Positions 32,786 to 50,787 of a stretch of 64,000 nt of DNA are shown piece by piece. The stretch is from Nitrospirota bacterium. Its GTDB lineage: Bacteria > Nitrospirota > Nitrospiria > Nitrospirales > Nitrospiraceae. The stretch lies in the NCBI GenBank assembly GCA_963703955.1, contig CAVPGK010000011.1:128001-192000 (forward strand), read 5' to 3'. The notes under the pieces were generated by a model that saw only the letters and a program-made list of their open reading frames with translations, was not told the DNA's origin and made no database searches. Each line of letters begins with the position of its first letter. Positions within the stretch are counted from its first letter, which is position 1. The translations under genes and the position numbers were made by a program.

Positions 32786-32798
32786 TGGTGGAGGGCAG
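32786..32798. repeat. att core, distal junction of element 1
   Basis: TGGTGGAGGGCAG, identical to the last 13 nt of tRNA-Ala (antisense). Confidence 0.9.
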
Positions 32799-32926
32799 CC
32801 GATAAATGATTTATTGAGACCGGCAATTCGCATTCCGTTGCGCGCTCACAGCGCGGCCGTCAACGAGCAAAAGTAGCGCAAGATTGATCCGCGAGCCAGG
32901 GCGAGGAAGACACAAGTGCCGCTGTA

Positions 32927-33109
32927 TTACTTGGGCGGGGACTGAGGCATCGCTGCCACGGCGGATGCAGTGGACGTCTGCATGGATGCCTTCAATTCTT
33001 GAATGGCTCTCGCGACGTCACCCTCGGTCGATCCGAATCGGTCTTCCATTACTTTGATGGCCTGATTAATCGCCTTTGTCATTTTTTTGATCTGCTCCTC
33101 AGGTGTCAT
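32927..33109 (-). CDS. small hypothetical protein
   Basis: TAAGGAG RBS, 60 aa, helical. Confidence 0.6.
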   Translation of the reverse strand: MTPEEQIKKMTKAINQAIKVMEDRFGSTEGDVARAIQELKASMQTSTASAVAAMPQSPPK

Positions 33110-33214
33110 GGAACGTCTCCTTATGGGCGTTCTAACTCTATTCGACGATGGCCCTTGTAATCAAACGTGAGTCAGGATCGCCTGGAAATACAGCTAGAGG
33201 GTATACCTCTGAGC

Positions 33215-33452
33215 CAATGCAGTCAGGTTAAAATTGCTCAGTTTTCAAGAACCACGAGCCTCCTGTCCGATCTTCTCAGGGATCTCGAAGGATTGCAAGA
33301 GGTCAGCACGCAAAAGCTGGCAGTCATGCCAGTCAGCCGCCGAAGGCGCGGGAATGATGACCTGCGGGTTTGTTTGTTCGCTGGTCGCAGGGGTTGTGGT
33401 CGGGTGATCCTGGTGCCACGCGTCCACCAGTAAGGTGAGGGTATGGGCATAG
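33215..33452 (-). mobile_element. possible IS4-family end remnant
   Basis: CAATGCAGTCAGGTTAA resembles IS4-type terminal repeats; a minus-strand ORF tail stops at 33245 just inside it. Confidence 0.3.
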
Positions 33453-33453
33453 G

Positions 33454-33894
33454 CCAGTTGCTCGTTTCGCTGGCTGGAAGGGGATGAGTGGGCGAGCCGT
33501 GTCAAGAACGCATTCGACCAAAATTTCTTGAGTGCGAGTGTGGGCCTGACCGTCCAGGAGCATGAGCCGAACCGGCTCGGCGGGGTCAACATCCTGAAGA
33601 GCGAACTGGTCGAATTTTCCCGCCTTCATGTTTGCGGACGACGACACCCGGGTCCGCATCATTGACGACCCGTTGCATCTACGTGATGACCGCACCCGGC
33701 AGCACATTGGGGAGCGCATGGAGGGGGTGATGCGGCGGGGCCTCGCACAGAACGAACCCATCTACCGAGTCGATCCGGCCGTCATGCGGGAGGCGGCCAA
33801 AACGCTCGCCTCACGACTCGAACGATATACGTACGACCTCATTGCGCACGAGGTCCATGCGGCCATCAATGCCATCCGAGGACGCGTCGATTAA
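33454..33894 (+). pseudogene. HK97-type prohead protease-like fragment
   Basis: FRWLEGDEWASRVKNAFDQNFLSASVGL...GGVNILKSELVEFS, then a frame change into ORF 33628-33894. Confidence 0.45.
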
Positions 33895-33925
33895 ACGACG
33901 GATCACACCACAGGAGGGACTGCCG

Positions 33926-34153
33926 ATGAGTGATCTCTCTGACCTGACCCATGAAACGAGCAACAGTCTTCGGGAGGAAATCTTCGAGAACCAACGCAAA
34001 AGCATGGCCCGCCGCGAGGCGATCCGCCTACTGGAACCGGTGTTGAGACGCGCACAGCAGCGGGCGATCGAGGAGGCGCGGCGGCCTATTAAGCTCTATT
34101 ACATCGAAGGGCTTCAGGACTTTGACCCGTCGCTACGGCTGTGGCCACTGTGA
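33926..34153 (+). CDS. hypothetical protein
   Basis: AGGAGG RBS, 75 aa. Confidence 0.6.
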   Translation: MSDLSDLTHETSNSLREEIFENQRKSMARREAIRLLEPVLRRAQQRAIEEARRPIKLYYIEGLQDFDPSLRLWPL

Positions 34154-34189
34154 GTCAGGCCGATACCAACACGTCAGAAGGGAGGCGTC

Positions 34190-34755
34190 ATGTTGAGGAG
34201 TAAGAATGGGCCCGCCACGATGCCGGACCTCGAGGTCCCGATCGATCAATACCCGGACGTCATCACGGCGCGAGAGGGCTTGCAGGCCGCGATTGAACAG
34301 CAAGAGAGGCTCTCTGCCGAATGGGCGACGGTGCAGGAGACGCTCAGGACGGACATCCCGACCTCCTCGTCGAGACGCTTGTCGTCGGCAGAGGAGAAAA
34401 GACTCGCGCTCAAGCGGCGCACGAGTTTACTAGACGAATTCGAGCAGGCCGAAGAGGCCGTCGCGCTGGCCCGCGCCCGACTCGCACAGGCGCGAGCCGA
34501 CGCAAAACAGATGTTCTTGGATATTCATCTGCCGAGGCTGCGTGAGCTGTTCCATGAGGCGTGCGCCCCGCTGGATGAGGTGGCCGAACGCGTCGATGCC
34601 TCGGGGAGTGGTATCGGCAGCTGTGCGACCTCGGGCAACTGAACGACGCGGACCGGGCCAGATTTCAATATCCGTTGAGTCATTTCATCTTGACGTATGG
34701 CAGCCCGCACTGGCACGAGACCCGACAGATGTTTCGCGAGCAGGGATTGCTGTGA
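34190..34755 (+). CDS. coiled-coil hypothetical protein, frameshift near 34600
   Basis: GGAGG RBS; adding one C at GCC-TC restores reading to TGA 34755. Confidence 0.55.
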
Positions 34756-35224
34756 CAGCCGGGGGCCAACAGACGGTGCGGGATTCGGCGCCGACGATCT
34801 GGGCTGCGCGCCCCCGGTGATTACGTGGCGCACCCAGAACGGATCAAGTGGAGGAGCCCGCACGGCGTGGTCGCCGTCGTGCGTTGTGCGACCCAACCGC
34901 TCACCTGCCTCCAATCGGTACCTCCCGCAATCGACCGGGTGAGCGGGCGCGACCTCTTTTCTCTCCTACCCATGTCAGGAGTCGGGAGTTGGGAGATCGT
35001 CGCTGGAAGCGCCCGTGGGTGGGGGGAATCTGAGCGGCACGACCGTGTGTGTCAGGGGTACGGCATGAGCGATCTGTCGAGCGTGTTCATTTGCATAGAG
35101 CGCGTCATGAGGAATCGCCGTGAGGTGGGCCTGGAAGGCGCTAGGACGAGCCGGACGCTATCATCCCCTGAAGTTTGGGGTAGGATCAATCACCTTGAGC
35201 TAACTGCATGCGACGGGGCGGTGG

Positions 35225-35485
35225 TCAGTTTGAGTTCATCCATGTTATCGCCATGGCCAATGCAGCATCATTCGCCTCTTCGTTGGAAGCAAAAGGCTTA
35301 GTAGTGTCGCCATAAATCGGGGTTATGGTTTCTATGCGTTCATCAGTGGATTCCCGAATCTGAGCCGCAGGAATCCAGCCAACTCCAGGGCGTTCATAAG
35401 ACACAAGGCGAAATCGACGATTGTTATAAATGACCCATTCATGCATTTGAAGAATCTCCACGTGCTTCGTCTCTGCCCACTTCAA
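35225..35485 (-). CDS. hypothetical protein
   Basis: 86-aa protein-like ORF, lower GC. Confidence 0.5.
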   Translation of the reverse strand: MKWAETKHVEILQMHEWVIYNNRRFRLVSYERPGVGWIPAAQIRESTDERIETITPIYGDTTKPFASNEEANDAALAMAITWMNSN

Positions 35486-35512
35486 GGGTTGATGGGTGCG
35501 TTGGGGTTTCCG

Positions 35513-35755
35513 TCATGGTTTCTTCCTTTCATCATGGAGCAGCCAGCTCGCCGGAATCACCGCCTGTTGCCCGGTCAAGGGATGATGCACCCGGATCTGC
35601 CGTCTCCCCACTGGTTCGAGAAAGACACCTTCCAAACGACCGAACAGCGGACTGTCCCAACTCACGCCTTGAACGGCTGTCAAGGGTGGGACGAGTGCGG
35701 TCATAAGCCGCTGGACCTTGTCTTGTTCATCGCTCAGTATCTCAAACAGGCTCAT
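35513..35755 (-). CDS. hypothetical protein
   Basis: GGAGG RBS, 80 aa. Confidence 0.5.
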   Translation of the reverse strand: MSLFEILSDEQDKVQRLMTALVPPLTAVQGVSWDSPLFGRLEGVFLEPVGRRQIRVHHPLTGQQAVIPASWLLHDERKKP

Positions 35756-36317
35756 TCATCAACCTCCCCGGCGAGGCAGGCTCTATGGTTTTGGATTGCT
35801 TTCGCGTATGGTCCTGGTCGCTTGAGCTTATTGATATGGCCACTCGTGTAGTATGGTAGAAACTCGCGTATCGTCATTGCTTAGACATCCTAATGGTTAA
35901 GTAGTGGTGCAGGGTACCACACTACGTAACATATCGCTCATTTTCCTTATCTGGCAAAATAGGAGGCTAGTGTAGGTACTTATGCCATGACATGCTGTCA
36001 AAACAGGAGGGTGTCCGCTTTCCGGCATACATCGTGCTGGTCGGGGTCAGCTTGCTCCTCTGGGCCCTGGTCATCGTGCTGCCGTGGGCACGGACGCGAC
36101 GGCGGAAACCGTAAGGGACGCTCCGAGACGAAGTAACGACAAGGACGCGGGCGCACGCACAAACAAATATCGTCATGTAACGATATTAAATTGCCGAAGC
36201 AACTCAACGATGTGATGTAGCGCAGACGAATCGAGGACGGGACCGGGGGTCCATCTCTATCCGAGGTGCCCCCTTTTTCTGTATCGTAGGTACGTCTAAA
36301 CGCACGCAGGAGACACG

Positions 36318-36650
36318 ATGAGGCGGTGTGAGCAGTGCCACACAGACTTTGAGCCGAAACACCCCAGAGCGCGATTCTGTTCGTCCCACTGTCGGGGGGC
36401 CGCGTGGTATGGGCAGCGGCACATGAGGCTGATGACCCTCCGGGGCCTGGTCGTGCGGGTGATCGAGGAAGTGGATGGGCGGGCAACTGTCCGTGAGGAC
36501 CACAAAAGTGTTTTGGCGGAAGAGCCGAAAGAACATCGCCACAATCTCGAACACGAGACGCGTGAGTGGTCGCGACCCGAAGCGCTGCGCCTTTTGCGGG
36601 CAGAAGGCCTGGGCCGGACGCACCGACCTCAGCGGGGTGTTTCTCTGTGA
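36318..36650 (+). CDS. small zinc-finger protein (CEQC...FCSSHC)
   Basis: AGGAG RBS; CxxC-x11-FCSxxC motif. Confidence 0.55.
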   Translation: MRRCEQCHTDFEPKHPRARFCSSHCRGAAWYGQRHMRLMTLRGLVVRVIEEVDGRATVREDHKSVLAEEPKEHRHNLEHETREWSRPEALRLLRAEGLGRTHRPQRGVSL

Positions 36651-36711
36651 ATCGTGCTGCCAGCGGGGCGAGCGACTACTGAAAGAACGGAGACTCAAGA
36701 AGGAGGAGTGA
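36475..36711 (+). CDS. ClpX-type C4 zinc-finger small protein
   Basis: CAFCG...VFLCESC; ends at the RBS of the next gene; overlaps the previous ORF (start uncertain). Confidence 0.45.
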   Translation: MGGQLSVRTTKVFWRKSRKNIATISNTRRVSGRDPKRCAFCGQKAWAGRTDLSGVFLCESCCQRGERLLKERRLKKEE

Positions 36712-36714
36712 GCG

Positions 36715-37026
36715 ATGGCACTCGCCGACTGGCTGATTCGCATCGGAGGCATCATGACGCTTGACAACTGGCTGATCCTCATCGGAGCCATCATGATGCT
36801 CATCGGACTAGGACTGGCCTTCGTCTCGACTCGCATGATTGCAGAGGTGGGAGCAGCCCGTAGGGGCCTTCTTCTCTTCGGACTCGAACCAGGAAGTCCT
36901 AAGGAGATTGAGCGGGCTCGCTTGCTGAAACGGTCTGACGTAGCATTTTGGTTGGGATTGGGATTCACGGCTGCCGGCATCATCTTCCAGACCGTCGGCG
37001 CGCTGTTAGCGGGAAACCCTCATTAA
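36715..37026 (+). CDS. small membrane protein
   Basis: AGGAGGAG RBS; two hydrophobic helices. Confidence 0.6.
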   Translation: MALADWLIRIGGIMTLDNWLILIGAIMMLIGLGLAFVSTRMIAEVGAARRGLLLFGLEPGSPKEIERARLLKRSDVAFWLGLGFTAAGIIFQTVGALLAGNPH

Positions 37027-37039
37027 GGGAGGATTGACC

Positions 37040-38772
37040 ATGAACGTCGCCCTGTACGCTCGATTCAGCAGTGAACACCAACGGGAGACCTCCATTACCG
37101 ACCAGTTTCGGAACTGCGAGCAATACGCAGCGCGCCAAGGCTGGACCGTCACGCATCGCTACGAGGACAAGGCGATCTCCGGGGCGACGGCCGAGCGTCC
37201 CGGCTATCAGCAGATGCTGAAAGATGCGCAGGCGCATCGGTTCGACGCGCTGTTGATCGACGACTTCTCGCGCCTCTCGCGTGATCAGGTCGAGACGGAG
37301 CAAGCCCGACGACGGATGGTGCACTGGAAGGTGCGGCTGATCGGCGTCTCCGACGGCATCGATACCGCCGCCAAGGGGCACAAGCTGCTCTCCGGGTTCA
37401 AGGGGATCATGAATGAAGTCTTCCTCGACGATCTGAAGGACAAAGTCAGTCGCGGGATGGTGGGGCAAGCCCTGAAGGGCTATCACTGCGGCGGGCGGTC
37501 ATATGGCTACACGCTCAAATCCGACTATGATGCGAGCAAGCCCGATCAGGCACGATCGGCGATTCTCGGCTCTCGGCTGGCGATCCATCCGGAGCAGGCG
37601 CGATGGGTCCGGTGGATTTTCCAACAGTATGCGGACGGCTGGTCGCCGCTGAAGATCGTCAACGAACTCAACCGCAAGGCGATTCCTCCGCCTGGCGCCG
37701 CCTATCGCCGCACGTCCACGCGACGCCCCTCCTGGTGCGCCAGTGCGCTGCACGGCGATCTGAATCAAGGCACGGGCTTGCTCAATAACCCGCTGTACAT
37801 CGGGCAGTCGATCTGGAACCGGTCGCGGTGGGAGAAAGACCCCGACACCAAGCGCAAGAACGCTTCCTGCGCGACCGGAGCGAGTGGGTGGTCACCCCGG
37901 CCCCGCATCTGCGCATCGTGACCGACGATCTCTGGGAGCGCGTCAAGGCGCGCCAGCGGGAGATCAGACACAGCAGTGCGGCGATCCGTGAGGCGTTGCA
38001 CGTCAACGCCCGGACCGGGCGCGGGCCGAAGTATCTCTTCTCCGGGCTGCTCATCTGTGGGGCGTGCGGCGGGAAGTACGTCATTACCGAACCGCATCGC
38101 TACGGCTGTAGCACCTGGCTCTATCGCGGCGAGTCGGTGTGCGCCAATACGGTGAAGGTCTCACGGACATTGGTCGAGACGTTGCTCCTGGAGTCCATCC
38201 AGCGCGACCTCTTCACCGACGAGGCGCTCGCCCTCTTCAAGCAGGAGACGGCCCGATTATTAGCAGAGCGGCGACAGGCGCAGACGCCTGATCTCGTGCA
38301 GGCCAAGGCCCGCCTCGCGCAGGTGGAGCAGCAGATTGCACACATGCTGGCGGCGATCAAGGAGGGCTTCCGATCCGACACGCTCAAGCAAGAGTTAGAG
38401 GAGGCGGAACGGGAACGCGCCCGGCTACAGACCACGATCCACGGGCAGCGCCAGACGCTCGACAAGGTGGCCGACGTCCTCCCCAACGCGGTGGCGCGAT
38501 TCAAGACGCTCGTCGAGAATCTGTCCACCGTGACGCAGAAGCAGGTCGATAAGGCGCGTGGGATTCTTCGGGACTTGGTGGGGAAGCAGATTCCGTTACA
38601 CCCGACCACCCACGGCACGGAGCGGTATCTGACGGCGGAATTGTCCGGGGATTATGCGGGGCTGATCCGGCTCGTCCTGGGTCAAAATAAGTTTGGTGGA
38701 GGGCAGGTGTTACGCCCGTGGTTGGCAACATCACTTTCTTTTGAACTGAAGGGCACTGCGATTGCTGCCTGA
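37040..38772 (+). CDS. large serine recombinase (resolvase, recombinase, Zn-ribbon, coiled coil), frameshift near 37860
   Basis: GGAGG RBS; YARFS catalytic motif, DDFSRLSR, LLNNPLYIG, LRIVTDDLW, LFSGLLICGACGG; ORF runs through the att core. Confidence 0.92.
38694..38706. repeat. att core, element 1/element 2 junction
   Basis: TGGTGGAGGGCAG. Confidence 0.9.
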
Positions 38773-38934
38773 GCTTGATAGAGGCAATACGGGTTCAAAT
38801 CCCCAACGGGATATTTCCCAAGGGGGCCATGCAGTTATCCCATTCTTCCTAAACATCACCGTGAGCGCAGTGTGGGTCAAAACGATGCGTTCACATCCTT
38901 GAGAATCGAGCCAGAAGCCCAATCCCCGCAATAC

Positions 38935-39265
38935 CCAAGCATGGGCTTACCCGATGAAACGTGCCCTGAGGGAGCACGGTACACGGGCAATAGACCGCAG
39001 AACCAGCCTTGGGAAGGCGCTCGACCGTTGGGGATCAACTGGTCTCTGACCTGGGCGGACTTGAACAGGTTTCGACTCAACAGCACGCCATCATCAATGT
39101 CGCGGTCAAAACCAAGCTACTACTCGATAGCATTGACGCCTGGCTCTTGCAGCAACCTAGCCTCATCAACCCTCGCAAGCGATCCGTTCATCCGGTAGTC
39201 CTTCAGAGACAGCAACTTGCCGATAGCCTCATCCGCGCAATGGACCAGCTCGGCTTAGATGGCTC
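38935..39265 (+). pseudogene. fragmented phage/satellite-type protein (DLGG..STQQ family, small-terminase-like)
   Basis: KRALREHGTRAIDRRTSLGKAL / DLGGLEQVSTQQHAIINVAVKTKLLLDSIDAW across frameshifts. Confidence 0.4.
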
Positions 39266-39480
39266 TGCAACCTGTCTCAATCCTGGTCGTACTCATGGTT
39301 ATCCTTCCAGTCATTATCCATCAGCGTCGAATGTTTCGCCTTCCGGCATCTGCTCTCCCAACAGGAGTTGCCGGCCCACCCATGGAGCGCTGTCTGCGCT
39401 CTATGCGTCACGTCGAGCCCAACGGTGTACGGACCAATCCGGTCACCTCACGACCGCCGTTTGGAATCGATCCCGGCCCA

Positions 39481-39681
39481 CTAGATTGGCTGAACCGTCG
39501 CGCCAGCCGGTTCTCGATCGGTCTCGGATCGCGATCGCCGCCGTCTGACCCCCTCCGGCTCTTCCTTCAGCGACCAGAACACTCCTGCGGCCATCGCGAG
39601 TGCGACCAAGCCAACTATTATGAGAGAGAAGGACTCGGTTGGAGGAAGTCCGTTCCAGAACTCGACAGTGCGCGAACCCAT
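39481..39681 (-). CDS. small membrane protein
   Basis: AAGGAG RBS; one TM helix; downstream of hsp20. Confidence 0.45.
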   Translation of the reverse strand: MGSRTVEFWNGLPPTESFSLIIVGLVALAMAAGVFWSLKEEPEGVRRRRSRSETDREPAGATVQPI

Positions 39682-39742
39682 TGCATCGCTCCTTCGGCAT
39701 CTGACATGGCATGGGAGGTGACAGGTCTCGCCCGCATCTCGG

Positions 39743-40192
39743 CTATGCCACTTTCACCTCGATCGCTTTCGGTTTCGCCTTTTCGGACTTCGGTAGGTGG
39801 ACATGCAGCACGCCATCTGTGAACTCCGCCATGACCTTCATGTCGTCGGCATCGTCCGGCACGGTGAAGCTCCTCACGAATGTTCCATATGTCCGCTCGA
39901 TCCGGTGATACTTCTTCCCTTTTTCCTCCTTCTCTTGCTTTCGTTCGCCCTGGATGGTCAACACCCCGTCCTGCACCGTGACTTTCACGTCTTCCTTCTT
40001 CACTTCGGGCAGTTCGGCTTTGATCACATATTCTTTGGCGTCTTCGCTGATATCCACGGCTGGAGACCAGTCCGCCACGGTCAGTGTCTCCTTGCTACCC
40101 TCCTGCCGTGCCGGTAATCGACCGAGTAGGCGGGTGAACCGCTCGCTCATTTCCTCAAGCTCCCGAGATGGATCCAAACGCAACAGATTCAT
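39743..40192 (-). CDS. Hsp20/alpha-crystallin small heat shock protein
   Basis: WSPAVDISE, AELP, LTIQGER, YGTFVRSF, DGVLHVHLPK. Confidence 0.96.
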   Translation of the reverse strand: MNLLRLDPSRELEEMSERFTRLLGRLPARQEGSKETLTVADWSPAVDISEDAKEYVIKAELPEVKKEDVKVTVQDGVLTIQGERKQEKEEKGKKYHRIERTYGTFVRSFTVPDDADDMKVMAEFTDGVLHVHLPKSEKAKPKAIEVKVA

Positions 40193-40327
40193 GGCGACCT
40201 CCTTTATACTTTTATATTGTTCCCCACACCTCGATATGGTACCGGATGCTCTATCCTCCTGGATCCGACATACGTTCCTACAGGCTGATCCTGGCTGCCT
40301 CCCTCGAGACCAAGGCTGCTGCTATGA

Positions 40328-40740
40328 TCATGCGCCCTGCATGGCGGCCGTGAGTTCCGGGCGCGGAACACCTCCCATCGTGAGACCATCACTGCCGCGG
40401 TCCACAACCACCCGCTGCCCGGGCCGGATCTCGCCTGCAATGATCTTCTCGGAGAGCGGCTCAAGGACATGCTCTTGGATCGTCCGTCGCAGCGGACGCG
40501 CGCCGAACGCCGGCTCGTACCCCACCTTCGCTAGGAAGTCTTTGGCGGACTCCGTCAGCTCGATCTCCAGGTCGCGCTGGGCGATCAACCGCGCCATGCT
40601 CCGCATCTGGATATCCACGATCTCGCGGATTCGCCGCGCATCGAGCCGCTTAAAGACGATGGCGGCATCGATGCGGTCAAGAACTCCGGTCGGAACGTGG
40701 CCCGCAATGCCTCGAGCACCCGTTTTCTCGGCCTCCCACC
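40328..40740 (-). pseudogene. ClpB C-terminal fragment
   Basis: FRPEFL / RIDAAIVF...GYEPAFGARPLRRTIQ; N-terminal part absent. Confidence 0.85.
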
Positions 40741-40862
40741 GGTAGGGTTTAGCGTCATACAGTGTTTCAATAACAGAAATTTTCTGAAACGAACAAAAAG
40801 AACATAAGTAATCTCTCAATCACCGATTCCATTACTCGGCTCACGAAGGCGGTATGACGCGT

Positions 40863-41117
40863 TCACGAGGCCTTTGGTTCGGCATCTTGGTATCCCGCAC
40901 CCACATAGCTTCCGGCCCAGTGGGCATACCGACGGTTAACCCAGGTCATGACCTCATCCTTCTGTGCCTCGCCATACCGTTTCTGAAGCACGCTGCCAAA
41001 CGTGGCGAGATTGCCCTCGATCTCGAGAAGATCCTCATCCGTAATCTTCTCCCACTTTGCCTTGAGGAGCGCTTTGAGTTGGGTCCAGAACTGTCCGAAC
41101 TGTTCCTGATTCATCAT
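40863..41117 (-). CDS. CsbD-like stress protein
   Basis: W.QLK...KAKWEKITDEDL..IEG....LQKRYG. Confidence 0.8.
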   Translation of the reverse strand: MMNQEQFGQFWTQLKALLKAKWEKITDEDLLEIEGNLATFGSVLQKRYGEAQKDEVMTWVNRRYAHWAGSYVGAGYQDAEPKAS

Positions 41118-41249
41118 GTGCTCCTTGGTTATGGGTGATGGAATCGCAGACCGCTCCGCCTCCTCACGACGGTCGAAACGCATGAACACGATCCAGACCT
41201 CGTCGTCGAACACGGACACGCTGGCGCAGAAGCGGTGCAGACCGTGAAA

Positions 41250-41904
41250 TTAGTCGTGCAGAACGACGTTGAGGAGGGAGCTGTGCACATGGAAGCCACC
41301 ATTGTAGTCCAGGAAGCCAAGTTTACGGAACCTATTCATGAAGAAACTGACGCGGGACCGCGTGGTGCCGATCATCTCAGCCAGCGTTTCTTGACTGACC
41401 TTCGCAATGACCGGCTCCGGCTTACCTTCTTTCCCAAAGTGGGCCAGCAGTAGGAGGATCCGCGCCAGCCGCTTCTCGGCTGAATTAAAGAGTTGATCCA
41501 CCAAGTCCTCTTGGATGCGAATATTGTTCGCCAGCAGATAGGACATAAACAGCTCGGCGAACGTGGGCTCCTCGTGAAGCGCGCGGATCATGGCGTCTTT
41601 GTCGATGCCCACGATCTTGGAGTCTTCCAGGGCGGTCGCGGTGGCCGTCCGAACCGTCTGCCCGGCGAGGCAGGATTCTCCAAAAAAGGCACCCGGTTCC
41701 AGAATCGCGACGACAGCTTCTTTGCCCTGTTGCGAGACCACGGTCAGCTTGACCGTGCCCGCCTGGATATAGAACACGGCTTCCGCCGCATCCCCTTGCG
41801 AAAAGAGAATCTGCTTCTTTCGGACCTGGCAGGGTCGTTTTTCCGCTGCCGACTTGTGTGAGGAACGTCTTGGGATGAAACGGCGTGGTTCGTTTGCGTG
41901 CCAT
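41250..41904 (-). CDS. Crp/Fnr family transcriptional regulator, frameshift near 41830
   Basis: FSQGDAAEAVFYI, FFGESCL, EKRLAR, SQETLAEMIGTTRSRVS. Confidence 0.88.
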
Positions 41905-42216
41905 CGGCCTACTCGCCTTGACTTCTCCGCCACTCTTTGTGTGAGCAGATGGGAGTAGCGGGGCATCAGACCAGGCACCCGATCGATCTTTTTTTTTGGT
42001 GTCCCGGGGAAGATGGGACGTGGACATGGCAGCTCCTTCCCTTCATCGTGTGAAAGATCTGATAATTCTGTAAGGGAGAGTCCTACCGAATCGTGAATCT
42101 GCATGTGGAATGCCAGCCTACAGCGGACGTGCAGCGCGCCCCAATCCCTTGGAATCATGAGTAAAGGCCGTACTCAGCGGCATGGAACACCGGCAAAGAG
42201 CCTGTGGCATTATGGG

Positions 42217-42521
42217 TCATGGAAAAGCGAGGCTCTGTCCTCTAATTCCACATTGCTTAGTGCGTGGCGGCTCACGACTTAGAAAGACTATGTGCAGTTC
42301 AGCGAGAAGGGAGGTTTCTGATCTGATAAGTGGTAAGAGATCCTGGCCATTTACGTTGACCGTTTCTAAAAATGGATTCAAGCCAATAGCTTTGTAACCC
42401 TGAATCGGTGGATACATCCAGAGCTGTCGTAACTGCGGATCCAGATACAGTATTATTTTATGCTTATCTTCCTTGCCTCCATTGGCCTTGAGTGGCCCCC
42501 TATACGTCAGCCTAACTCCAT
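42217..42521 (-). pseudogene. fragment of a hypothetical protein
   Basis: ME / RLTYRGPLKANG..KH....PQLRQLW...PLI...LHIVFLSREPP; frameshifted and truncated. Confidence 0.4.
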
Positions 42522-42865
42522 AGAGAAAGCTCCCAGCCGCAACCTATGCAATAAGCAAGGGAGAAGCGGAAGGTCTTGAAAACACTGGAGCCGGTCTTCG
42601 GCGGCTGATCTGCCCCTATCTGCCTCAATAACCTCGCCGGCCCAAACCTGCTGGTATTCGTCCTTTCTTCAGAATCTCTTGGAAGTCCACAAATATCCCA
42701 TCTGGTCCTCTCCGGCTATCATCTGGCACCGGGCATGCTTAATCATGAACAAGTGTGTCTAAACGCCGAAACGGAAATGTTGCGGCGTGATGAGAAAAAA
42801 GACTAATGGGAGTCTCAAGTTGATCATACTATTGTAACTAAGCACCGAAGCGGATCGGGCACGAC

Positions 42866-43125
42866 ATGGATATATCTGCGCCAGTCATTCGTCTCGACGG
42901 AGTTGAAAAGGCTTTTGCTGCACAGGAGATGTTGTAAGGGGCTGAACCTAAAGATCCTGCGCGGAAAGGTCACCACGGTCGTTGGTCTCAGCGGCGACGG
43001 AACAAGTGTGTGATTGAAACACATGATAGCCTGACCGGCCCGACCATGGGCAGGTGCTGGTTGATAAGGAGGAAATCGCATGACTGGAAGGACGCGCGCT
43101 CAATGACGTGTGGAAGAAATTCCGT
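42866..43125 (+). pseudogene. MlaF-like ABC ATPase 5' remnant
   Basis: VIRLDGVEKAF / GLNLKILRGKVTTVVGLSGDGTSV*LKHMI / PDHGQVLVD with stops. Confidence 0.6.
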
Positions 43126-43247
43126 TCGCATTAGGGTCGACACCGTTTGACTCCCTGTAGGTATGTGACGAAGTAGCCTTCCCTTGACTGGCTGGAAGCG
43201 GAGGAGCTCATTCCGGATAACGAGAGAGAGTAGCGTAGGGGGGATGT

Positions 43248-45851
43248 ATGGACATGAACCGCGTGACGCTGAAGCTTCAAGAGGCACTGCAGGCTGCCTC
43301 AGCCCACGCGATGCGCCGAAGCCATCAAGGCATTGACATCGAGCACCTGCTGCTGGCGCTGATGGAACAAGAAGCAGGTCTGACCGGTCCGCTGTTTGAA
43401 CAGGCGGGGGTCTCTGCGGCCGCGGTACAGAAGGCCGCCGAGGCGGCCTTAGACAGGCTTCCACAGGTGGAGGGGCCCGGATCAGCGCCTGGACAGGTCT
43501 ATGTGACCCAGCGCTTGTCGTACGTGCTGACCCAGGCCGAACAGGAGATGCGAGGACTGCACGATGAATATGTGAGCGTGGAGCATGTCCTTCTCGCGAT
43601 GGTGGTAGAAGGGGGTATTTTTAGACAGCTCGGATTAACCCGCGATCGTCTGTTGTCCGCGCTTCAACAAATACGGGGGAACCAACGGGTGACAAGTCAG
43701 GACCCCGAAAGCACCTATCAAGCGCTTGAGAAGTACGGTCGTGATCTGACCAGACTAGCCGGGCAAGGTAAGCTGGACCCGGTCGTGGGACGGGACGAAG
43801 AAATCAGACGGGTGATTCAGATCCTGTCCCGACGGACGAAAAATAATCCGGTACTCATCGGTGAGCCCGGCGTAGGGAAGACGGCGATCGTGGAGGGATT
43901 AGCCCAGCGAATTGTCAAAGGAGATGTGCCCGAAGGCCTGAAGCACAAACGCCTCATCGTGCTCGACATGGGAGCCTTGATCGCTGGAGCCAAGTATCGT
44001 GGCGAATTCGAGGACCGCCTTAAGGCGGTCCTCAAGGAAGTCCAGTCGGGACATGGGCAGATTCTGATGTTCATCGATGAGTTGCATACAGTAGTTGGCG
44101 CGGGTGCGGCTGAAGGAGCGATGGATGCGGCCAACATGCTCAAGCCCTTGCTGGCCCGCGGCGAACTGCACATGATTGGGGCAACCACACTCGATGAGTA
44201 CCGCAAGCATATTGAAAAGGATGCTGCGCTCGAACGCAGGTTTCAGCCTGTCATCATCGGTGAACCGACGGTTGAGGACACGATCTCGATCCTACGAGGA
44301 CTCAAAGAACGATACGAAATCCACCACGGTGTGCGTATCAAGGATGCCGCACTGATCGCAGCCGCCAAACTATCGCACCGATACATCGCGGACCGCTTCT
44401 TACCGGACAAGGCCATTGATCTGGTGGATGAGGGAGCCGCCCGTCTCCGGACTGAGATCGACAGTCTACCGGCAGAGCTGGACGAGATCTCGCGGAAGGT
44501 GCTGCAGTTGGAGATTGAGCGCGAAGCGCTCCGCAAGGAAAGCGACCCCGCCAGCCGCACACGATTAGCGGCGCTAGAAGAGGAGTTGGCCGAAAAGGTA
44601 CGCGATCGGGATGTGCTGAAGACCCACTGGGAAACAGAGAAAGTGTCTGTTGGTCGTCTGCATAAGTTTCGTCAACAGATCGAAGCCATGAAACAGGAGA
44701 TGGAACGGGCCGAACGGGCCTACGACCTGAATCGGGTCTCGGAGTTGCGGTATGGCGAATTGCCCAAGTTGGAGCGGCAACTCGCCGCAGAGGAACAGCA
44801 CCTGGTGAAGAAGCAAAACGGACATCGGTTGCTGAAGGAGGAAGTGGATGAAGATGACATTGCGGAGGTCGTCAGCCGCTGGACGGGCATTCCCGTCGCT
44901 CGCCTGGTGCAAGGTGAGATGGAGAAGCTGCTGCATCTGCAGGACCTCTTGCACAAGCGTGTGGTCGGTCAGGAGGAGGCGGTTCGGGCCGTTGCAGATG
45001 CTGTGATACGCGCTCGGTCGGGAATCAAGGATCCCTCCCGGCCGATCGGCTCATTCCTGTTCCTTGGTCCAACGGGCGTTGGGAAAACAGAGCTCGCACG
45101 TGCCTTAGCTGCAACACTCTTCGATGATGAAGCGAATCTCATTCGCATTGATATGTCGGAATATATGGAGAAACACACCGTCGCTCGGCTCATCGGCGCT
45201 CCGCCCGGCTATGTGGGGTATGAGGAAGGCGGCCAACTCACAGAGGCGGTCCGGCGTCGTCCGTTTTCCGTGATTCTGTTCGATGAAATCGAGAAGGCCC
45301 ACCATGACGTGTTCAATGTGTTGCTCCAGGTGATGGATGACGGCCGACTCACCGACTCGCATGGTCGCACCGTGGACTTCAAAAATACGGTGTTGATCAT
45401 GACCTCGAATATCGGAAGTCAGGACATCTTGGAGGCCCAGCAGCGACAGGTGCCGTATGAAGAGATGAAGAAGGTGGCCATGACTGACCTCCGCCGGCAC
45501 TTCCGGCCAGAGTTTTTGAACCGCGTTGATGAGACGGTGGTGTTCCATCCGCTCTCCACGGCGCAGTTGGTCAGGATTGTGGACATCCAGTTGACTCGTC
45601 TGGAAGAGCGTCTGGCCGAGCGGAGGATTTCTCTTGAACTCACTGCTCAGGCGAAGGCTGACCTCGCTCAACGCGGCTATGATCCTGTGTACGGCGCGCG
45701 GCCACTCAAGCGATTGATCCAGCAGGATCTCGAAACACCAATCGGTTATGTACTCGTGAGGGGTGAGCTACGGGACGGCGGTACGGCTCATGTGGAGCTC
45801 AAAGACGGGAAGATCGTGGTGATACCGACAGGTCGGGCCCAAGTTGCGTAA
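43248..45851 (+). CDS. clpB: ATP-dependent disaggregase ClpB
   Basis: Two AAA modules ([16 protein letters not shown]), middle coiled-coil domain, GYVGYEEGG, 867 aa. Confidence 0.97.
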
Positions 45852-46109
45852 AGAAAGCAAGATGCACCGGAAGAGATGCTCGGTTACTGAGTACAGTTGA
45901 CGGACACAGTCGCACAAACATCCGAGTGTTCAGCTCCGATACGCAGTTTGCCTCGCGATGTATGGGCAGCCATTGTGGCCAGCTTCGTCATGGACATCTC
46001 GAGCCAGAAGGCCATCAGGAGCGCTGCAAGCAGCGCCAGCGCTCCGTCGAACAAGAACGGTGCAGGCGTCCGTCGAATCCGGACCAGGGTCCGACCCCTT
46101 GCCATAGCA

Positions 46110-46699
46110 CATCCGCGATCACCGAAGCCTACGATCGGCTAAGCGACGGCAGTTCACGATCTTGTGGACGTGGCGGTTCGGAGCAGCGCGACGGCGGAAG
46201 ATTTCCCTGACGCGAGCTTTGCCGGCCAGCAAGAGACCTACCTCAATGTTCAAGGACATCAGGCGTTGTTGGAAGCGTGCAAACCGTGCTTTGCCTCGCT
46301 GTTTACCGATCGCGCCATTTCGTACCGAGTGGACAAGGAGTTCGACCATCTGAAGATCGCGCTGTCAATCGGCGTGCAACGGATGGTGCGCTCCGATCTG
46401 GCGACGTCAGGCATTATGTTTTCCATCGATACCGAAACGGGATTCAAGGATGCCGTCTTGATCAATGCGTCCTATGGGTTGGGGGAAAATGTCGTCCAGG
46501 GTGCGTGGTTGCCAGCGTCATCAAAGTTGCGAAGGCGAAGGGGAGAAAGATCGGGATCTGTGGTCAGGTCCCCAGTGACTATCCGGACTTCGCGAAGTTT
46601 TTGGTTGAGCAGGGCATTGATAGCATCTCGCTCAATCCCGACGCGGTGATGAAAACCACCGCCATGATCCTGGAACTAGAACAGTCTGTGCGGAGATGA
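46110..46699 (+). pseudogene. ppsA: phosphoenolpyruvate synthase remnant with large internal deletion
   Basis: [23 protein letters not shown]...GLGENVVQG joined at ~46500 to [24 protein letters not shown]. Confidence 0.85.
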
Positions 46700-46786
46700 C
46701 AGAGGTAGGTTCATCGCTACGCTCGATATCGTAATGGCATCAACAACCCCCGACGTGGTCGATTGAACAGCTAGAAACGAAGTGAC

Positions 46787-47719
46787 ATGGAATTCAAGGA
46801 CTACTACAAGCTTCTCGAGATTGAGCGCACGGCGACGGCCGACGACATCAAAAGCGCATACCGCAAGCTGGCGCGAAAATATCATCCGGACGTGAGTAAA
46901 GAGCCGCAAGCGGAAGCGCGCTTTAAGGAAATCGGCGAAGCCTTCGAAGTGCTTCAGGACCCGGAGAAGCGCGCCGCCTACGACCAACTCGGCAATCGCT
47001 GGCGGGCGGGGCAAGAATTTACCCCTCCGCCGGACTGGGCTGCGGGCTTCGAGTTCACCCCCAGCGGCGCTTCCGCGGCGGATGCCACAGACTATAGCGA
47101 CTTCTTCTCCGCCCTGTTCGGCAACTTCTCCCGTCACAGCACATCCACCCGTGCTCATGGCGAGGACCATCATGCCAAGATCTTCATTGCACTCGAGGTT
47201 GCGTTTCACGGCGGAACACACACGATTACCCTGCGTTCACCTCAGGTGAATGAGCAAGGTCAGCTGGTGCTGCAGGAGCGGTCGCTCAACATACAGATTC
47301 CCAAAGGCATCCGTGAAGGCCAGCATATCCGACTGACGCGGCAAGGCGCGCCGGGAGCCAACGGAATGCCCGCGGGTGACCTCTATCTCGAGATCTGTTT
47401 TCACCCCCACCCCCTGTACCAGTTACAAGGCCGCGACCTGTCTCTCTCATTGCCGCTTGCACCGTGGGAAGCGGCCCTCGGGGCCACGGTCAAAGCGCCG
47501 ACCCCAACCGGTGTGGTTGAAGTTAAAATTCCCCCGGGCTCGCAGAGCGGGCGAAAGCTAAGACTTAAGGGACGCGGCATCCCCGGCGAACCGGCGGGCG
47601 ATCTCTATCTTGTCCTGGAAGTGGTCCTTCCGACAGCGGACACGGAGCAGGCACAACAGATCTATCAAACCATGGCGCGGGAACTGGCCTTCAATCCGCG
47701 CCAAGCACTGGGGGTCTAA
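46787..47719 (+). CDS. cbpA: DnaJ-class curved DNA-binding protein
   Basis: KDYY, YHPD J-domain, APWEAALG, no Zn finger. Confidence 0.92.
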   Translation: MEFKDYYKLLEIERTATADDIKSAYRKLARKYHPDVSKEPQAEARFKEIGEAFEVLQDPEKRAAYDQLGNRWRAGQEFTPPPDWAAGFEFTPSGASAADATDYSDFFSALFGNFSRHSTSTRAHGEDHHAKIFIALEVAFHGGTHTITLRSPQVNEQGQLVLQERSLNIQIPKGIREGQHIRLTRQGAPGANGMPAGDLYLEICFHPHPLYQLQGRDLSLSLPLAPWEAALGATVKAPTPTGVVEVKIPPGSQSGRKLRLKGRGIPGEPAGDLYLVLEVVLPTADTEQAQQIYQTMARELAFNPRQALGV

Positions 47720-47721
47720 TT

Positions 47722-48042
47722 ATGGATAGGGAGGAGGAGCTTCTGACAGGAAGCGTGATCGGTGATGAGGGTGTGCTGTCGATCGAGGAGTTGGCGAGAG
47801 CCTGTAGCGCGGAGGCGCAGTGGATCATCGAATTGGTGGCCGTGGGGGTGCTGGAGCCGCAAGGTACGGAGACCTCGCGCTGGCGATTCCGTGCGACGGA
47901 TCTTACCTGTGCCCGCCGAGTGGCCCGCCTCCAACGGGATTTTAATGCCAGTCTCGATGCGGCCGCAGTGATGCTCGATCTGCTCGATCAGATCGAACAG
48001 TTGCGCGCTCGGCTGAAGCGGGCCGGCCTGGATGTGGAATAG
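47722..48042 (+). CDS. cbpM: chaperone modulator CbpM
   Basis: MerR-like ELARAC...ELVAVGVLEP...RLQRDF; follows cbpA. Confidence 0.9.
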   Translation: MDREEELLTGSVIGDEGVLSIEELARACSAEAQWIIELVAVGVLEPQGTETSRWRFRATDLTCARRVARLQRDFNASLDAAAVMLDLLDQIEQLRARLKRAGLDVE

Positions 48043-48170
48043 GTCTGCAGCACAAGGGACGCGGGGGGAGCTGACTCGTCGTGCCGCTCTTAGGTCACTG
48101 CCGTTGCCTGCTTCTGGCACCTGGGCAGCCGTTGGCGATTTAATGATCGGCACTCTTACGGACATGAGCC

Positions 48171-48605
48171 ATGAGTGATATGATGCGTGTTCTGTGCCCC
48201 CGGTGCTACACCATCAATCGCGTCCCGGCAGCACGCTTCGCGGATCGCCCTAAATGTGGCCAGTGCCACGAGCGGCTGTTCACCGGACACCCGATTGCGC
48301 TGACGGCGGCGGACTTCGACATGCACGCCACCCGAAGCGACATTCCGCTGGTCGTGGATTTTTGGGCGCCGTGGTGCGGGCCCTGCCGAATGATGGCTCC
48401 AGCGTATGAGCAGGCTGCCAAGATTCTGGAGCCACACCTTCGCCTGGCCAAGGTGAACACGGAAGAGGAACAGGCGCTTGGGGCCCGCTTCGGCATTCAA
48501 AGTATCCCGACCGTGATATTGCTTCGCGGAGGGCATGAAGTGGCGCGGCAATCCGGGGCCCTCGGCGCGCAGGACATCGTGCAGTGGGTCCGTGCCCATC
48601 TGTGA
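48171..48605 (+). CDS. trxC: thioredoxin 2
   Basis: CPRC..NRVP...CGQC Zn domain plus WCGPC. Confidence 0.93.
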   Translation: MSDMMRVLCPRCYTINRVPAARFADRPKCGQCHERLFTGHPIALTAADFDMHATRSDIPLVVDFWAPWCGPCRMMAPAYEQAAKILEPHLRLAKVNTEEEQALGARFGIQSIPTVILLRGGHEVARQSGALGAQDIVQWVRAHL

Positions 48606-48734
48606 TTCGAACATTCGACGCGCGCGACTTCTCCTGTTACGGGTATGGTGCAGTCTGAGGCCGGATTGAGGAAAGGGGCATAGCACGAGCGTGAGCCTAT
48701 GTGCCCAACCGGCCAGAGCCTGCCATAGAGGAAT

Positions 48735-49260
48735 GAACTACCCCCTGTGGCTAGACCAGCCGCCATGTGAGTCAGGCACCACACGGGGCAGTTCCTCAAG
48801 GTGCCGCTGGCCTACGTTTCGTGTTTTGGGCAGGTCCCTAGACGAGACAACCACGGCAGCTTGAAAGGCGCTCAAAGTTCTCAACGATGAGGGGTGCTTC
48901 CCCTCCCACCCCTGCGACTGCGTGAGCGATTGTCTACCACGCCTGGCTGTCTCGGGCTCGTTGATTTCGAGGAGAGAATGATTATCTAAGAACTGAAGGA
49001 GGTGGAGTGAGAGTTGAGGCGTTTGAGTTTGACCCACCTTTGTGTAGCCAGCGTGCATAGGGCATCGCTTCTGCTTCAGTGGCGGGGTGGGTTCAAGGTA
49101 CACGCTCTCGATCGTCGGTGCCGCTAGGTGCAGCCGTAGATGCGAGTCTGAACCAAAAGTGAAGCGTGGGGCAATCAGCCTTAGGCGACTGAAGGATTGC
49201 TGGACCTGGCCCCGTTCGGATGGCAGCCCCGGTGTTCCACACAAGGGCGGGCCGTTTTGT
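48735..49260 (+). ncRNA. candidate large structured RNA, HEARO/omegaRNA-like 5' part
   Basis: Series of nested stems, ending in a stem plus T-rich tract; no credible CDS. Confidence 0.35.
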
Positions 49261-49573
49261 GTGTGACCGCATGGTTCCTTCCTCGCACTTTCTCCATCTT
49301 CATGAGAGCCTGCAGAATTATCCCCTACAGCGAATAACGACATATGGGTCTCATAAAAGCAACACCACATGATTATGATCGAGGGAATTCGCGAGGAGGA
49401 TAATAAAAAAACGAAGCGGAGGCCAGTCCAGAGAGCTCTGTGTCGATTGTGGAAGTCTTGGAGGGGTTTTAGGCTTCCCGCTCATCCTGGCGGGCCTGCT
49501 CACCGCCCCTGCGCTTGACCTCGATTCCCTTGAGTGTTCCTCTCCCCGAGTCCTCCGCTCACTTATAAGATAA

Positions 49574-49729
49574 CCGTCCGTCGCGAGAAATCAATCGGTG
49601 GAGCGGCCCCGTTCAGTCAAGACCGTTCCCTGACTCACGGTGGCAGGCGGTCTCCTGTTCCCAGGATCAATCGTCGGCACCAGGGCACCTGAACGGTGGC
49701 CTCACAGCTGGGGGTAGATCACGGGACGG
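49574..49729. repeat. long imperfect palindrome, possible IS110-derived MITE
   Basis: CCGTCC/GGACGG ends; CCGTTCAG (49609) pairs with CTGAACGG (49689). Confidence 0.35.
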
Positions 49730-49935
49730 TGGCTCGGTGACTATCAAAGTCTTGCATACTTCTTAGCACAGCACGCGGTGGATACGCATTGGGCTTTCCA
49801 GTAGACTGACCTCCCAACGAATGGCGGACTCTGGTGGGCCATGCTGCAAAGGCCGACCGTAGCCGACGTGCCAGTTGCGATGCCGTTCGTAACTTCTTGA
49901 GGCAGATGCGTATTCGTATAACTAGGAGGCACGAG

Positions 49936-50391
49936 ATGAACGATCAAGACACACAACGTGCGGTTGGGATTCTCAACCACATTATGGAGCATGAGTTGGC
50001 AGGAGTCGTACGGTATATGCATTACTCCCTCATGATCTATGGCTATAATCGCATTCCGATCGTGTCTTGGCTGAAAAGTAATGCCGACGAGAGCTTTGCA
50101 CATGCACATAAAGCCGGAGAACTGGTCACCTTGCTAGGCGGCCACCCGTCGCTGAGAATTGGGGCACTCTTGGAAACTGAGAAGCATGATGTGGGAGACA
50201 TCCTCGAGGAAAGCTTGGAGCACGAGAAGGCTGCCATCGCCTCCTATTACGAACTCCTGAAAGTCTCCGAAGGAAAGTCCGTGCTGTTGGAAGAATATGC
50301 ACGAGAGATGATCGTCAGCGAAGAGCTGCACCTTGACGAGGCGAACAAGATGTTGCGGAAGTCAGGTGATGTTCAACCATTTCGCTCCTGA
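49936..50391 (+). CDS. bacterioferritin / ferritin-like protein
   Basis: AGGAGG RBS; ELAGVVRY, ESFAHA, HE, EELH diiron ligands. Confidence 0.88.
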   Translation: MNDQDTQRAVGILNHIMEHELAGVVRYMHYSLMIYGYNRIPIVSWLKSNADESFAHAHKAGELVTLLGGHPSLRIGALLETEKHDVGDILEESLEHEKAAIASYYELLKVSEGKSVLLEEYAREMIVSEELHLDEANKMLRKSGDVQPFRS

Positions 50392-50634
50392 CCTAACCCT
50401 TCAATCCACCGGGCAGGAAAACGTGGAAAGAAACGAGTGTGGGGAGCTAGTGTCGTCTCGGCCGCGCTGGGAGACCAAAATGGTTTCCCGCCGATACCCC
50501 ACGCGCCGCTCTTGGCTTCTTCCACCAGTACCCACGTTGCGTCACGCAGCTGTTCTCCGCTGCTCGCGCCCGATTCAAAAGAAACTGCTGAAAAGGAAGT
50601 TGGCGTGAGTGCGCGAACGATTTCGGAACTTTTC

Positions 50635-50751: not shown

Positions 50752-50759
50752 AGAGCATC

Positions 50760-50787
50760 TTACACATCAATAATAGTTGATGTGTAA
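50760..50787. promoter_or_regulatory. ArsR-type operator palindrome
   Basis: TTACACATCAA-N6-TTGATGTGTAA perfect inverted repeat between divergent arsR and arsI/cadI remnants. Confidence 0.7.

Follow-up and report, generated by a model that had tools for sequence, protein, structure and literature searches.

Where does a recombinase gene end when the site at which its product cuts lies across its own last codons? The question is raised by a 64,000-nucleotide stretch of a Nitrospirota bacterium genome (GenBank assembly GCA_963703955.1, contig CAVPGK010000011.1, positions 128,001 to 192,000), called here the window, by which we always mean the whole of this stretch. In it, copies of a short core bound two integrative islands, B and then A, placed in tandem at the 3' end of a tRNA-Ala(CGC) gene, and at the right end of each island a gene for a large serine recombinase (LSR), or what is left of one, runs through the core in frame. 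We find that in the LSR family of islands A and B the attachment site attP lies across the last codons of the recombinase gene. To judge from the patterns of change described below, the free circle very probably encodes an enzyme with a C-terminal tail and the integrated copy an enzyme without it; the tail would then be coding, and the tailed isoform would have to matter.

Three copies of a tRNA end bound the two islands

The 13-bp core TGGTGGAGGGCAG occurs exactly three times in the window (Table 1), where 0.09 copies are expected by chance, and three or more copies were found in none of 100 shuffled sequences. Core copy 3 is the last 13 nt of tRNA-Ala(CGC), CCA included; these nucleotides come from island A. 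Direct repeats of the tRNA end at the island borders are the footprint of integration, here as well as in the intact A-type elements and the elements at tRNA-Glu described below. The initial annotation had noted that all three cores translate as GGGQ in the recombinase frame, and the three translations and their coordinates are exact. At the tRNA, the plus-strand frame reads GGGQGI and stops (56614-56634); at core 1 it reads GGGQ-PINDLLRPAIRIPLRAHSAAVNEQK before the stop (32787-32876), and at core 2 GGGQ-VLRPWLATSLSFELKGTAIAA (38695-38772). Within the window no recombinase gene lies 5' of core 1. The GGGQ at that position comes from the displaced tRNA end when this is read in the frame expected of a circle. 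A contig from public run X5 spans 32683-32947, across core 1, with zero differences.

The two recombinases are distinct, the C-terminal parts of the window copies being only 25% identical. The B-type gene ends ...GQNKF-GGGQ and the A-type gene ...VKVVNES-GGGQ. The N-terminal open reading frame (ORF) of B matches the catalytic Resolvase domain PF00239 (E = 6.6e-27) and carries the motif YARFSSEHQ; the B-type recombinase also matches PF07508, the Recombinase domain that serves as first DNA-binding domain (DBD1), and after it PF13408, the zinc ribbon (DBD2) into which a coiled coil is inserted. In tblastn, residues 1-273 of the full-length relative P0002 align to 37040-37855 and residues 278-563 to 37867-38706 in another frame, so that a single frameshift, located between 37855 and 37867, interrupts the B-type gene (37034-38772). 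Run X3, possibly the window's own source, has a contig that covers this region (37743-37893) with zero differences. As for A, residues 370-561 of the full-length homologue P0242 align to 56038-56628 with 83% identity; the Resolvase domain is missing from this stump and present in the intact A-type gene of genome G076 (Pfam).

The initial annotation had proposed that the excised circle encodes a tailed recombinase and the integrated element a tail-less one. The geometry of the locus bears this out; the window genes themselves do not supply the enzymes, A being a 3' fragment and B frameshifted. In situ, gene B reads through the core into the type II tail of neighboring island A, which is non-cognate by dyad symmetry (see below). 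The cognate tail of gene B is the 32799-32876 segment, in circle form, and the tail at 38707-38772 is the cognate tail of A-type recombinases.

Two further observations concern the same genome. A third LSR remnant lies at G000:C17:219828-220400 (L002), with a 225-aa open frame that is 45% identical to gene B over residues 67-260; no tRNA was found inside this 3.6-kb locus. A 3' fragment resembling transfer-messenger RNA (tmRNA) lies at 32622-32770 on the minus strand, about 20 nt past the distal core and on the same strand as the tRNA; cmscan matched RF00023 at 32622-32709 (13 bits, E = 0.009), and a complete tmRNA gene was not found in the genome assembly, which is 82% complete.

The predicted crossover lies inside the recombinase frame

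The arms around the core show dyad symmetry centered on the C|A of GGGCA. We scored it as the number of matching positions among the 20 that lie 11-30 from the CA center. The B-type P arm (37 distinct sequences) scored 11.6 with the type I P' arm and 6.9 with the type II P' arm, and the A-type P arm scored 7.6 and 10.8, respectively; shifted registers gave at most 9.0. The symmetry predicts a crossover inside the Gln codon of GGGQ, and we infer cleavage at the CA of GGGCA. The scores also assign the tail at 32799 to island B's recombinase and the tail at 38707 to island A's. The P arm encodes ...NKF-GGGQ or ...NES-GGGQ, while the P' arm together with the next 40-60 nt or so encodes a tail of 21-28 residues and a stop. 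In the integrated form, the gene is joined to the antisense strand of the tRNA, which gives two residues and a stop (GS or GI).

The same pairing recurs in other arrays. A type I left end accompanies a B-type right end in six (the window, G003:C17, L072, L017, L004 and L055), with a full-length B-type gene in L004, and a type II left end accompanies an A-type right end in five (the window, G003:C5, G076, G116 and G132), the last three being elements of 16.6-20.5 kb with full-length genes. Two miniature elements of about 120-140 bp, flanked by two cores, were also seen (L021, 5371-5521; L074, 2995-3124). They consist only of a type II tail segment and the last 20 or so codons of a B-type recombinase, and may be deletion remnants or non-autonomous att cassettes.

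Tails form conserved families that change like protein-coding DNA

Both tails have relatives. Type I recurs at L021, L011, L033, L072, L017, L087, L004, L055 and L074 and in proteins P0261 and P0316, with sequences such as PLPDLFRPTILVPLRATQGDPKRANAKQ and PIPDLFRPTIRVPLKTPQAEPKRGNTMK; recurrences of type II include PLHPSLMPALPFKIEGIALAA, AIQPSLEPFLRFEIQGVALAA and AIHPSLVAGFSFKIEGVAVAA. In each of the 15 type II left ends, GGGQ/H is followed by exactly 21 codons and a stop, and the stop codon itself varies (TAG in 7, TGA in 6, TAA in 2). Mean pairwise differences among type II tails were 7.7, 5.2 and 11.6 at the first, second and third codon positions, and the ratio of nonsynonymous to synonymous differences (pN/pS) was 0.50 in the tail frame compared with 1.01 and 1.31 in the other two. 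For codons 9-21 taken separately, pN/pS fell to 0.42, with 5.0, 2.9 and 7.9 differences by codon position. There were no in-frame stops, against 15 and 12 in the other frames, and mean identity was 0.61 within the tail and 0.27 over the 60 nt past the stop. Type I tails (7 ends, 16 codons) gave the same kind of result, with a pN/pS of 0.42 and no in-frame stops against 5 and 6 in the other frames. An antisense ORF beneath the tails was considered and rejected, since all antisense frames contain stops. These patterns indicate that the tail is under purifying selection and evolves as protein-coding DNA.

In front of the outermost left ends there is chromosomal flank and no gene, so the tail frame meets a gene only in a circle or in an array. 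Since the tails change as coding sequence does, and since a gene stands in front of them only in the circle or in a tandem neighbor, the tailed isoform must, on this evidence, be made and matter. Immediately 3' of the type II tail stop, at 38773-38815, the window carries a T-arm-like motif on the plus strand (...aatacGGGTTCAAATCCCCaacggg) that is absent from other type II left ends.

A comparable arrangement was found further afield. Matches to P0242 at E ≤ 1e-60 occurred in 25 of 151 genomes, a tally that includes the unpublished genome G011, on which no other result depends. Among loci with recombinase frames open for at least 499 aa, those at tRNA-Glu(TTC), all from the same bacterial family, overlap the tRNA in the same way in 5 of 5 cases examined. 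In each of the five genomes the tRNA end is paired, 6.6-24 kb apart; G073 has a third copy on another contig. Read in the recombinase frame, the distal copies give TSQRGTTPFTFEIDVIVKVA, SKEGNSNFCFSIDVLALAA, HQTTERPLSFTIDLLVVAA, AVCSGAFGTWGVPFNGFVEAA and RLCQDGIPLWGIPFQGMVEAA, each followed by a stop, with endings such as ...FCFSIDVLALAA and ...LSFTIDLLVVAA. By eye, three of the five resemble type II (F-x-F-x-I-x-x-hydrophobic-A-L-A-A). These enzymes are only 43-54% identical to the A-type recombinase, they have a different core, and the G144 element also takes another frame through the tRNA.

The far-end tails are therefore not random in length or sequence: they form conserved families with a fixed stop and a coding pattern, and the tRNA-Glu relatives have them too. 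The residue pattern that the initial annotation saw in both window tails (positions 2, 6, 10, 12, 14, 15, 16 and 20) is literally present; position-by-position homology between the two is uncertain, as the modeled strands differ.

In models, the tail lies against the base of the coiled coil

We modeled tailed proteins with AlphaFold2 (AF2). For L033, a natural 297-aa C-terminal remnant of the B type that carries a type I tail, the mean predicted local distance difference test score (pLDDT) was 86.9, with a strand at TIRVALR (residues 281-287, block pLDDT 76). The window's own 314-aa C-terminal ORF with its type II tail gave a mean of 87.8, with a short helix (297-302) and then the strand FELKGTAI (306-313; pLDDT 68-78); in this model, long antiparallel helices (131-178 and 184-232) lie between the zinc-ribbon strands and a C-terminal hairpin. 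In the type I tail the modeled strand thus spans residues 9-15, and in the type II tail residues 13-20.

Docking was also modeled in two pieces, the window B domain (residues 1-293) and the translated window piece 32763-32873 that carries the type I tail. The complex scored 0.62 against 0.05 for the best of three controls. Of 157 solved complexes, 116 reached this mark, as did 2 of 215 mismatched pairs; these counts hold only roughly because the alignments were our own. The runs shared at least 52% of contacts, with a partner pLDDT of at least 48. Residues 17-28 of the tail piece contacted domain residues 267-278, which form the second strand of the hairpin, residues 257-262, and residues 111-140, a stretch that covers the helix preceding the coiled coil as well as the first turns of the coiled coil itself. 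The models support binding of the tail to the enzyme as an extra β-strand on the hairpin that follows the coiled coil. In a Foldseek search of the PDB, the best matches, weak ones with E about 1e-3, were serine integrase-att DNA complexes and 4KIS. According to published work on recombination directionality factors (RDFs), these factors bind the junction of DBD2 and coiled coil, mostly by adding a strand to DBD2, and the SCCmec recombinases have permanent C-terminal strands that could block the RDF site (PMC12286644). A role in directionality would fit the modeled position of the tail, at the DBD2/coiled-coil junction.

The ends of the tails raise another possibility, namely that the tail is mainly a C-terminal degradation tag, ssrA-like with its ...ALAA, which would expose the circle-encoded enzyme to quick clearance by proteases of the ClpXP/ClpAP type and leave the integrated tail-less form stable, so that the switch would set the lifetime of the enzyme instead of its direction. 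In the ssrA tag, the protease determinant is the final pair of alanines. Thirteen of the 15 type II tails end in Ala (LAA 5, FAA 2, LVA 2, and IAA, VAA, RVA and RIA 1 each), all five tRNA-Glu-clade tails end in VA or AA, and 17 of the 51 non-tRNA tails of the wider family end in A; moreover, the tmRNA tag that ARAGORN predicts in related Nitrospira genomes is ANQELALAA, whose last four residues are shared by the ends GIALAA and GVALAA. These counts, however, are not phylogenetically independent. Type I tails have basic ends without AA (NEQK, NAKQ, NNKE, NTMK), a degron would have no use for the conserved amphipathic strand that precedes the terminus, and AF2 puts the terminal residues within the docked strand. 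We regard a main role in degradation as unlikely, though it deserves to be kept in view; it is compatible with docking, and both readings can hold.

Gene ends across the family

The crossover point falls inside the recombinase ORF in the window, in 52 B-type junctions, in the A-type genes and in the genes of the tRNA-Glu clade. The tRNA-targeting recombinase clade comprises 5554 homologues at E ≤ 0.001. From a set of 360 collected homologues (94, then 147 further and 119), about 220, as classified with regular expressions of our own making, end in peptides that are tRNA genes read backwards, for example GGGQGS, VAGxGFEPxTFGL, GSGGRI and GAGGQNRTGYARLFRAALYQ. Where the T-loop of the tRNA lacks an antisense TGA, the integrated recombinase reads backwards through nearly the whole tRNA (for example GGGQGDRTPDLVVANDALSQLS, then a stop), as seen in the metagenome loci L022 and L023 and in P0001, P0003, P0248 and P0310; from this it follows that the integrated-form end is unconstrained in length. 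No relative was found in viral contigs in two scans, one with the 10-row alignment A2 and one with P0242.

The 52 distinct B-type gene ends came from 71 genome and metagenome loci and the window. Of these, 37 adjoin tRNA-Ala(CGC) or tmRNA; the frame continues into a type II tail in 8, into a type I tail in 4 (one of them cut by the contig end) and into other sequence in 3. Four loci of Nitrospira relatives sit at tmRNA. Because 12 of the 52 ends, and gene B of the window too, read into a neighbor's tail, the tails might act mainly in tandem arrays, where the next island's 3' fragment would complete the recombinase and selection would act on chromosomal junctions. This possibility was raised for the recombinase DsiB by McMurdie et al. 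(2011, PMC3146451). Against it, dyad symmetry marks most of these junctions as non-cognate, the genes that lead into them are in many cases truncated, and all five single tRNA-Glu elements and three A-type elements have conserved far-end tails with no gene in front. We consider it very improbable that the tails serve chiefly in arrays.

The sequences ...ARF and ...MRF before GGGQ were considered as a third type of island right end and rejected, as they precede the outermost left ends in G076 and G116; they are more likely native flank downstream of the tRNA.

A candidate switch and what weighs against it

The reading that we favor, that recombination swaps the tail, can be extended as follows. 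Integration moves the tail-coding segment to the island's far end and joins the gene to the tRNA. The tail would add a β-strand to the hairpin after the coiled coil and touch the base of the coiled coil, at the DBD2/coiled-coil junction to which RDFs bind. The tailed enzyme encoded by the circle would be set for integration, insensitive to or independent of an excision factor, and the tail-less integrated enzyme would leave the RDF site free for the excision reaction. On the strength of the models, we propose tentatively, and at rather less than even odds, that the tail fills the RDF site, the tailed form being committed to integration and the tail-less form open to excision. More doubtful is the broader idea that the tail may be a cis-encoded plug for the RDF junction, attached and removed by the reaction itself, which would make a whole superfamily of tRNA-targeting LSRs self-directional, a natural switch of direction within one protein that depends on its state, with the ssrA-like LAA end adding rapid clearance of the tailed enzyme. 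The account taken as a whole, that is, the tail swap, the tail at the RDF site setting direction and the window as a fossil, seems to us to have a slightly better than even chance of being right.

The intact A-type island of G076 bears on two steps of this account. It encodes a Rep_trans initiator, a Zot-family ATPase, a ParA-like protein, a DNA methylase (N6_N4_Mtase) and an HTH_17 protein. These genes suggest a filamentous-phage-like (inovirus-like) element or a rolling-circle episome that uses an LSR at tRNA-Ala, and the pairing of Rep_trans with Zot makes a free circular stage plausible. Since the HTH_17 protein has a match to excisionase families (phrog_66, E = 7e-9), there may be a separate directionality factor. 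The initial annotation had suggested control without a separate RDF, and in view of this gene that part of the proposal is doubtful.

Together with this excisionase-like gene, the following points count against the switch. Both recombinase genes of the window are defective, and the switch here is thus a fossil. Among the relatives we found no natural full-length gene with its cognate tail: L033 and L011 are C-terminal remnants of 297 and 242 aa, and the tailed ORFs recovered are tandem-array junctions, mostly non-cognate (a B gene with a type II tail) or truncated. Contigs of the public runs X1, X2, X3 and X5 over 32600-38900 contain no joint between cores, neither circle nor empty site, although such low-depth contigs are blind to rare forms. 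In three arrays (L012, L021 and L074), a type II left end is followed by a B-type remnant, which in L021 lies just 139 bp away; we read these arrays as probable deletion derivatives. In the models, the tail pLDDT is moderate, the partner's own fold is doubtful, with pLDDT values below 50 in the complex runs, and the alignments were made by us. Finally, the first 8 or so type II codons, which double as the P' binding arm, have a pN/pS of only 0.69, and the integrated-form C-terminus ranges freely from 2 to 18 residues, so that the tail-less state may be tolerated rather than used.

These last two points also speak for a different explanation, in which the tail has no function as protein, its conservation reflects constraint on attP at the DNA level and a variable C-terminus is simply tolerated. 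L056/L057 and L071 likewise keep type I similarity in DNA despite a broken frame, and the ends of DsiB, as described in McMurdie et al. (2011, PMC3146451), are divergent in length and sequence. The coding signature is nevertheless strongest in the distal 13 codons, 37-75 nt from the start of the core. An LSR attP half-site usually takes up about 25 bp per side, and the distal tail codons lie beyond it. The position of the stop is fixed though the codon varies, and conservation ends there; related tail peptides occur in a clade whose tRNA target and core are different; and the tail docks specifically in the models. We therefore think it improbable that the tail is without a role in the protein.

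Other contents of the islands

The small ORFs of island B had no family matches, and PHROGs likewise gave none for the 8 ORFs searched. Island A carries stress-like cargo within 39259-52320. Coordinates are collected in Table 1.

Table 1. Features of the window (positions counted from its first letter), with the intact A-type island of G076 in the last row
Feature	Coordinates	Strand	Description
Core copy 1	32786..32798	+	Displaced tRNA-Ala 3' end; distal array end; attL of island B; exact pattern match
Predicted crossover CA, core 1	32796-32797
Island B	32799..38706		5.9 kb; small ORFs and B-type LSR at right end
Type I tail segment	32799..32876	+	25 codons, PINDLLRPAIRIPLRAHSAAVNEQK, then TAG; left end (P' arm) of island B
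Type I P' dyad motif	32810-32821	+	TTTATTGAGACC; within type I tail segment
B-type recombinase N-terminal ORF	37034..37921	+	Resolvase and Recombinase domains (Pfam)
B-type recombinase C-terminal ORF	37828..38772	+	Zinc ribbon, coiled coil, hairpin, GGGQ, then type II tail of neighbor
B-type P arm	38680-38693	+	GGTCAAAATAAGTT; 3' end of B-type C-terminal ORF
Core copy 2	38694..38706	+	Junction of islands B and A; exact pattern match
Island A	38707..56625		17.9 kb, decayed; stress-type cargo, insertion sequence, truncated recombinase
Type II tail segment	38707..38772	+	21 codons, VLRPWLATSLSFELKGTAIAA, then TGA; left end (P' arm) of island A
Type II P' motif	38717-38729	+	CGTGGTTGGCAAC; within type II tail segment
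Crp-family regulator	41250-42158	-	Island A cargo
ClpB-like ATPase	43248-45851		Island A cargo
PPDK fragment	46164-46649		Island A cargo
DnaJ-like protein	46787-47719		Island A cargo
Ferritin-like protein	49834-50391		Island A cargo
Tandem-Usp protein	51253-52320	-	Island A cargo
Insertion sequence transposase DDE_Tnp_1_4	53255..54719	+	Two frames, 53255-53779 and 53760-54719; upstream of truncated recombinase
A-type recombinase 3' fragment	56038..56634	+	Last ~192 of ~561 residues; ends ...VKVVNESGGGQGI, then stop
A-type P arm	56599-56609	+	GTTGTCAACGA; 3' end of A-type fragment
Core copy 3	56613..56625		Last 13 nt of tRNA-Ala(CGC)
tRNA-Ala(CGC)	56613..56688	-	ARAGORN and Rfam
Predicted crossover CA, core 3	56623-56624
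Intact A-type island L153/L154	G076:C1:659729-680293		20.5 kb

Comparison with known systems

For writing large DNA into genomes, serine integrases are leading tools, and the central problem in their design is one-way behavior, with reversal by separate RDF proteins. If the switch proposed here is true, it would be a new single-gene way to encode directionality or enzyme lifetime, and it would explain an oddity of the DsiB islands that has stood open since their description. The tRNA-targeting LSR clade is large and, in the literature searched, largely undescribed. For annotation, the layout means that such genes are routinely called with arbitrary tRNA-antisense ends while the far-end tail is left unannotated.

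Searches of the full-text literature, whose coverage stops short of subscription journals, returned no description of conserved, selected tails or of tail docking for this clade. A preprint on Tycheposons mentions large serine recombinases and does not mention overlap of gene and att site, and the accessible part of the Integrase-On-Demand paper does not mention an attP-spanning layout. Serine-recombinase integration into tRNA genes is called rare by Ghinet 2011, and according to Islander 2014 serine integrases were not known to target such genes.

In phage integrases and those of integrative and conjugative elements (LI/A118, SPbeta SprA, PhiC31 and Bxb1), the domain order is the one seen here: Resolvase, Recombinase, and a zinc ribbon with an inserted coiled coil. 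In these large serine integrases, attP lies, as far as is known, outside the coding sequence. Their directionality factor is a separate protein, whereas here the candidate modulator would be part of the same polypeptide and would be removed by the reaction. The C-terminal β-strand extensions of the SCCmec Ccr recombinases are permanent; the tail here would be toggled by recombination.

An attP inside the integrase gene itself is the feature shared with Mx8 IntP/IntX and the SSV-type integrases. The initial annotation had drawn this analogy, and it is sound: Islander 2014 notes that both integrases extend across attP, and a review (PMC6070905) says in its passage on Mx8 that int contains attP and that integration makes a new 3' end with altered properties. 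The Mx8 and SSV enzymes, unlike the recombinases of the window, are tyrosine recombinases of unrelated fold and mechanism, to which no coiled-coil or RDF logic applies. On integration, the SSV integrase gene is split rather than re-tailed.

The closest parallel, likened by layout, is DsiB of Dehalococcoides, an LSR whose gene overlaps the att repeat in tandem islands at one tRNA-like gene; some Nitrospira relatives of the recombinases studied here also sit at tmRNA. The targets here are mostly tRNA-Ala or tRNA-Glu, and not ssrA as for DsiB. The DsiA/RecF/ParB/Mom module of DsiB islands had no counterpart in the window islands (Pfam); in its place, the G076 island has the ParA-like, Rep_trans and Zot genes, and in addition the DNA methylase gene, which may or may not be related to Mom. 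McMurdie et al. (2011, PMC3146451) report that the 3' end of dsiB always overlaps attL, so that the gene stops inside ssrA or inside the adjoining island, and speculate that DsiB is perhaps fully functional only on the circle or beside a neighbor that supplies the 3' fragment; they also offer a "trivial explanation", that such ends are tolerated. The initial annotation had left it undecided whether the arrangement was described for this clade of serine recombinases. The attP-spanning layout is thus known, in DsiB, and was already in print. What seems to be new, in the literature searched, are the conserved, selected tails and their modeled docking: the DsiB ends were given no proposed function, whereas the tails here form conserved families that are under purifying selection and that dock, in the models, on the enzyme whose gene they complete.

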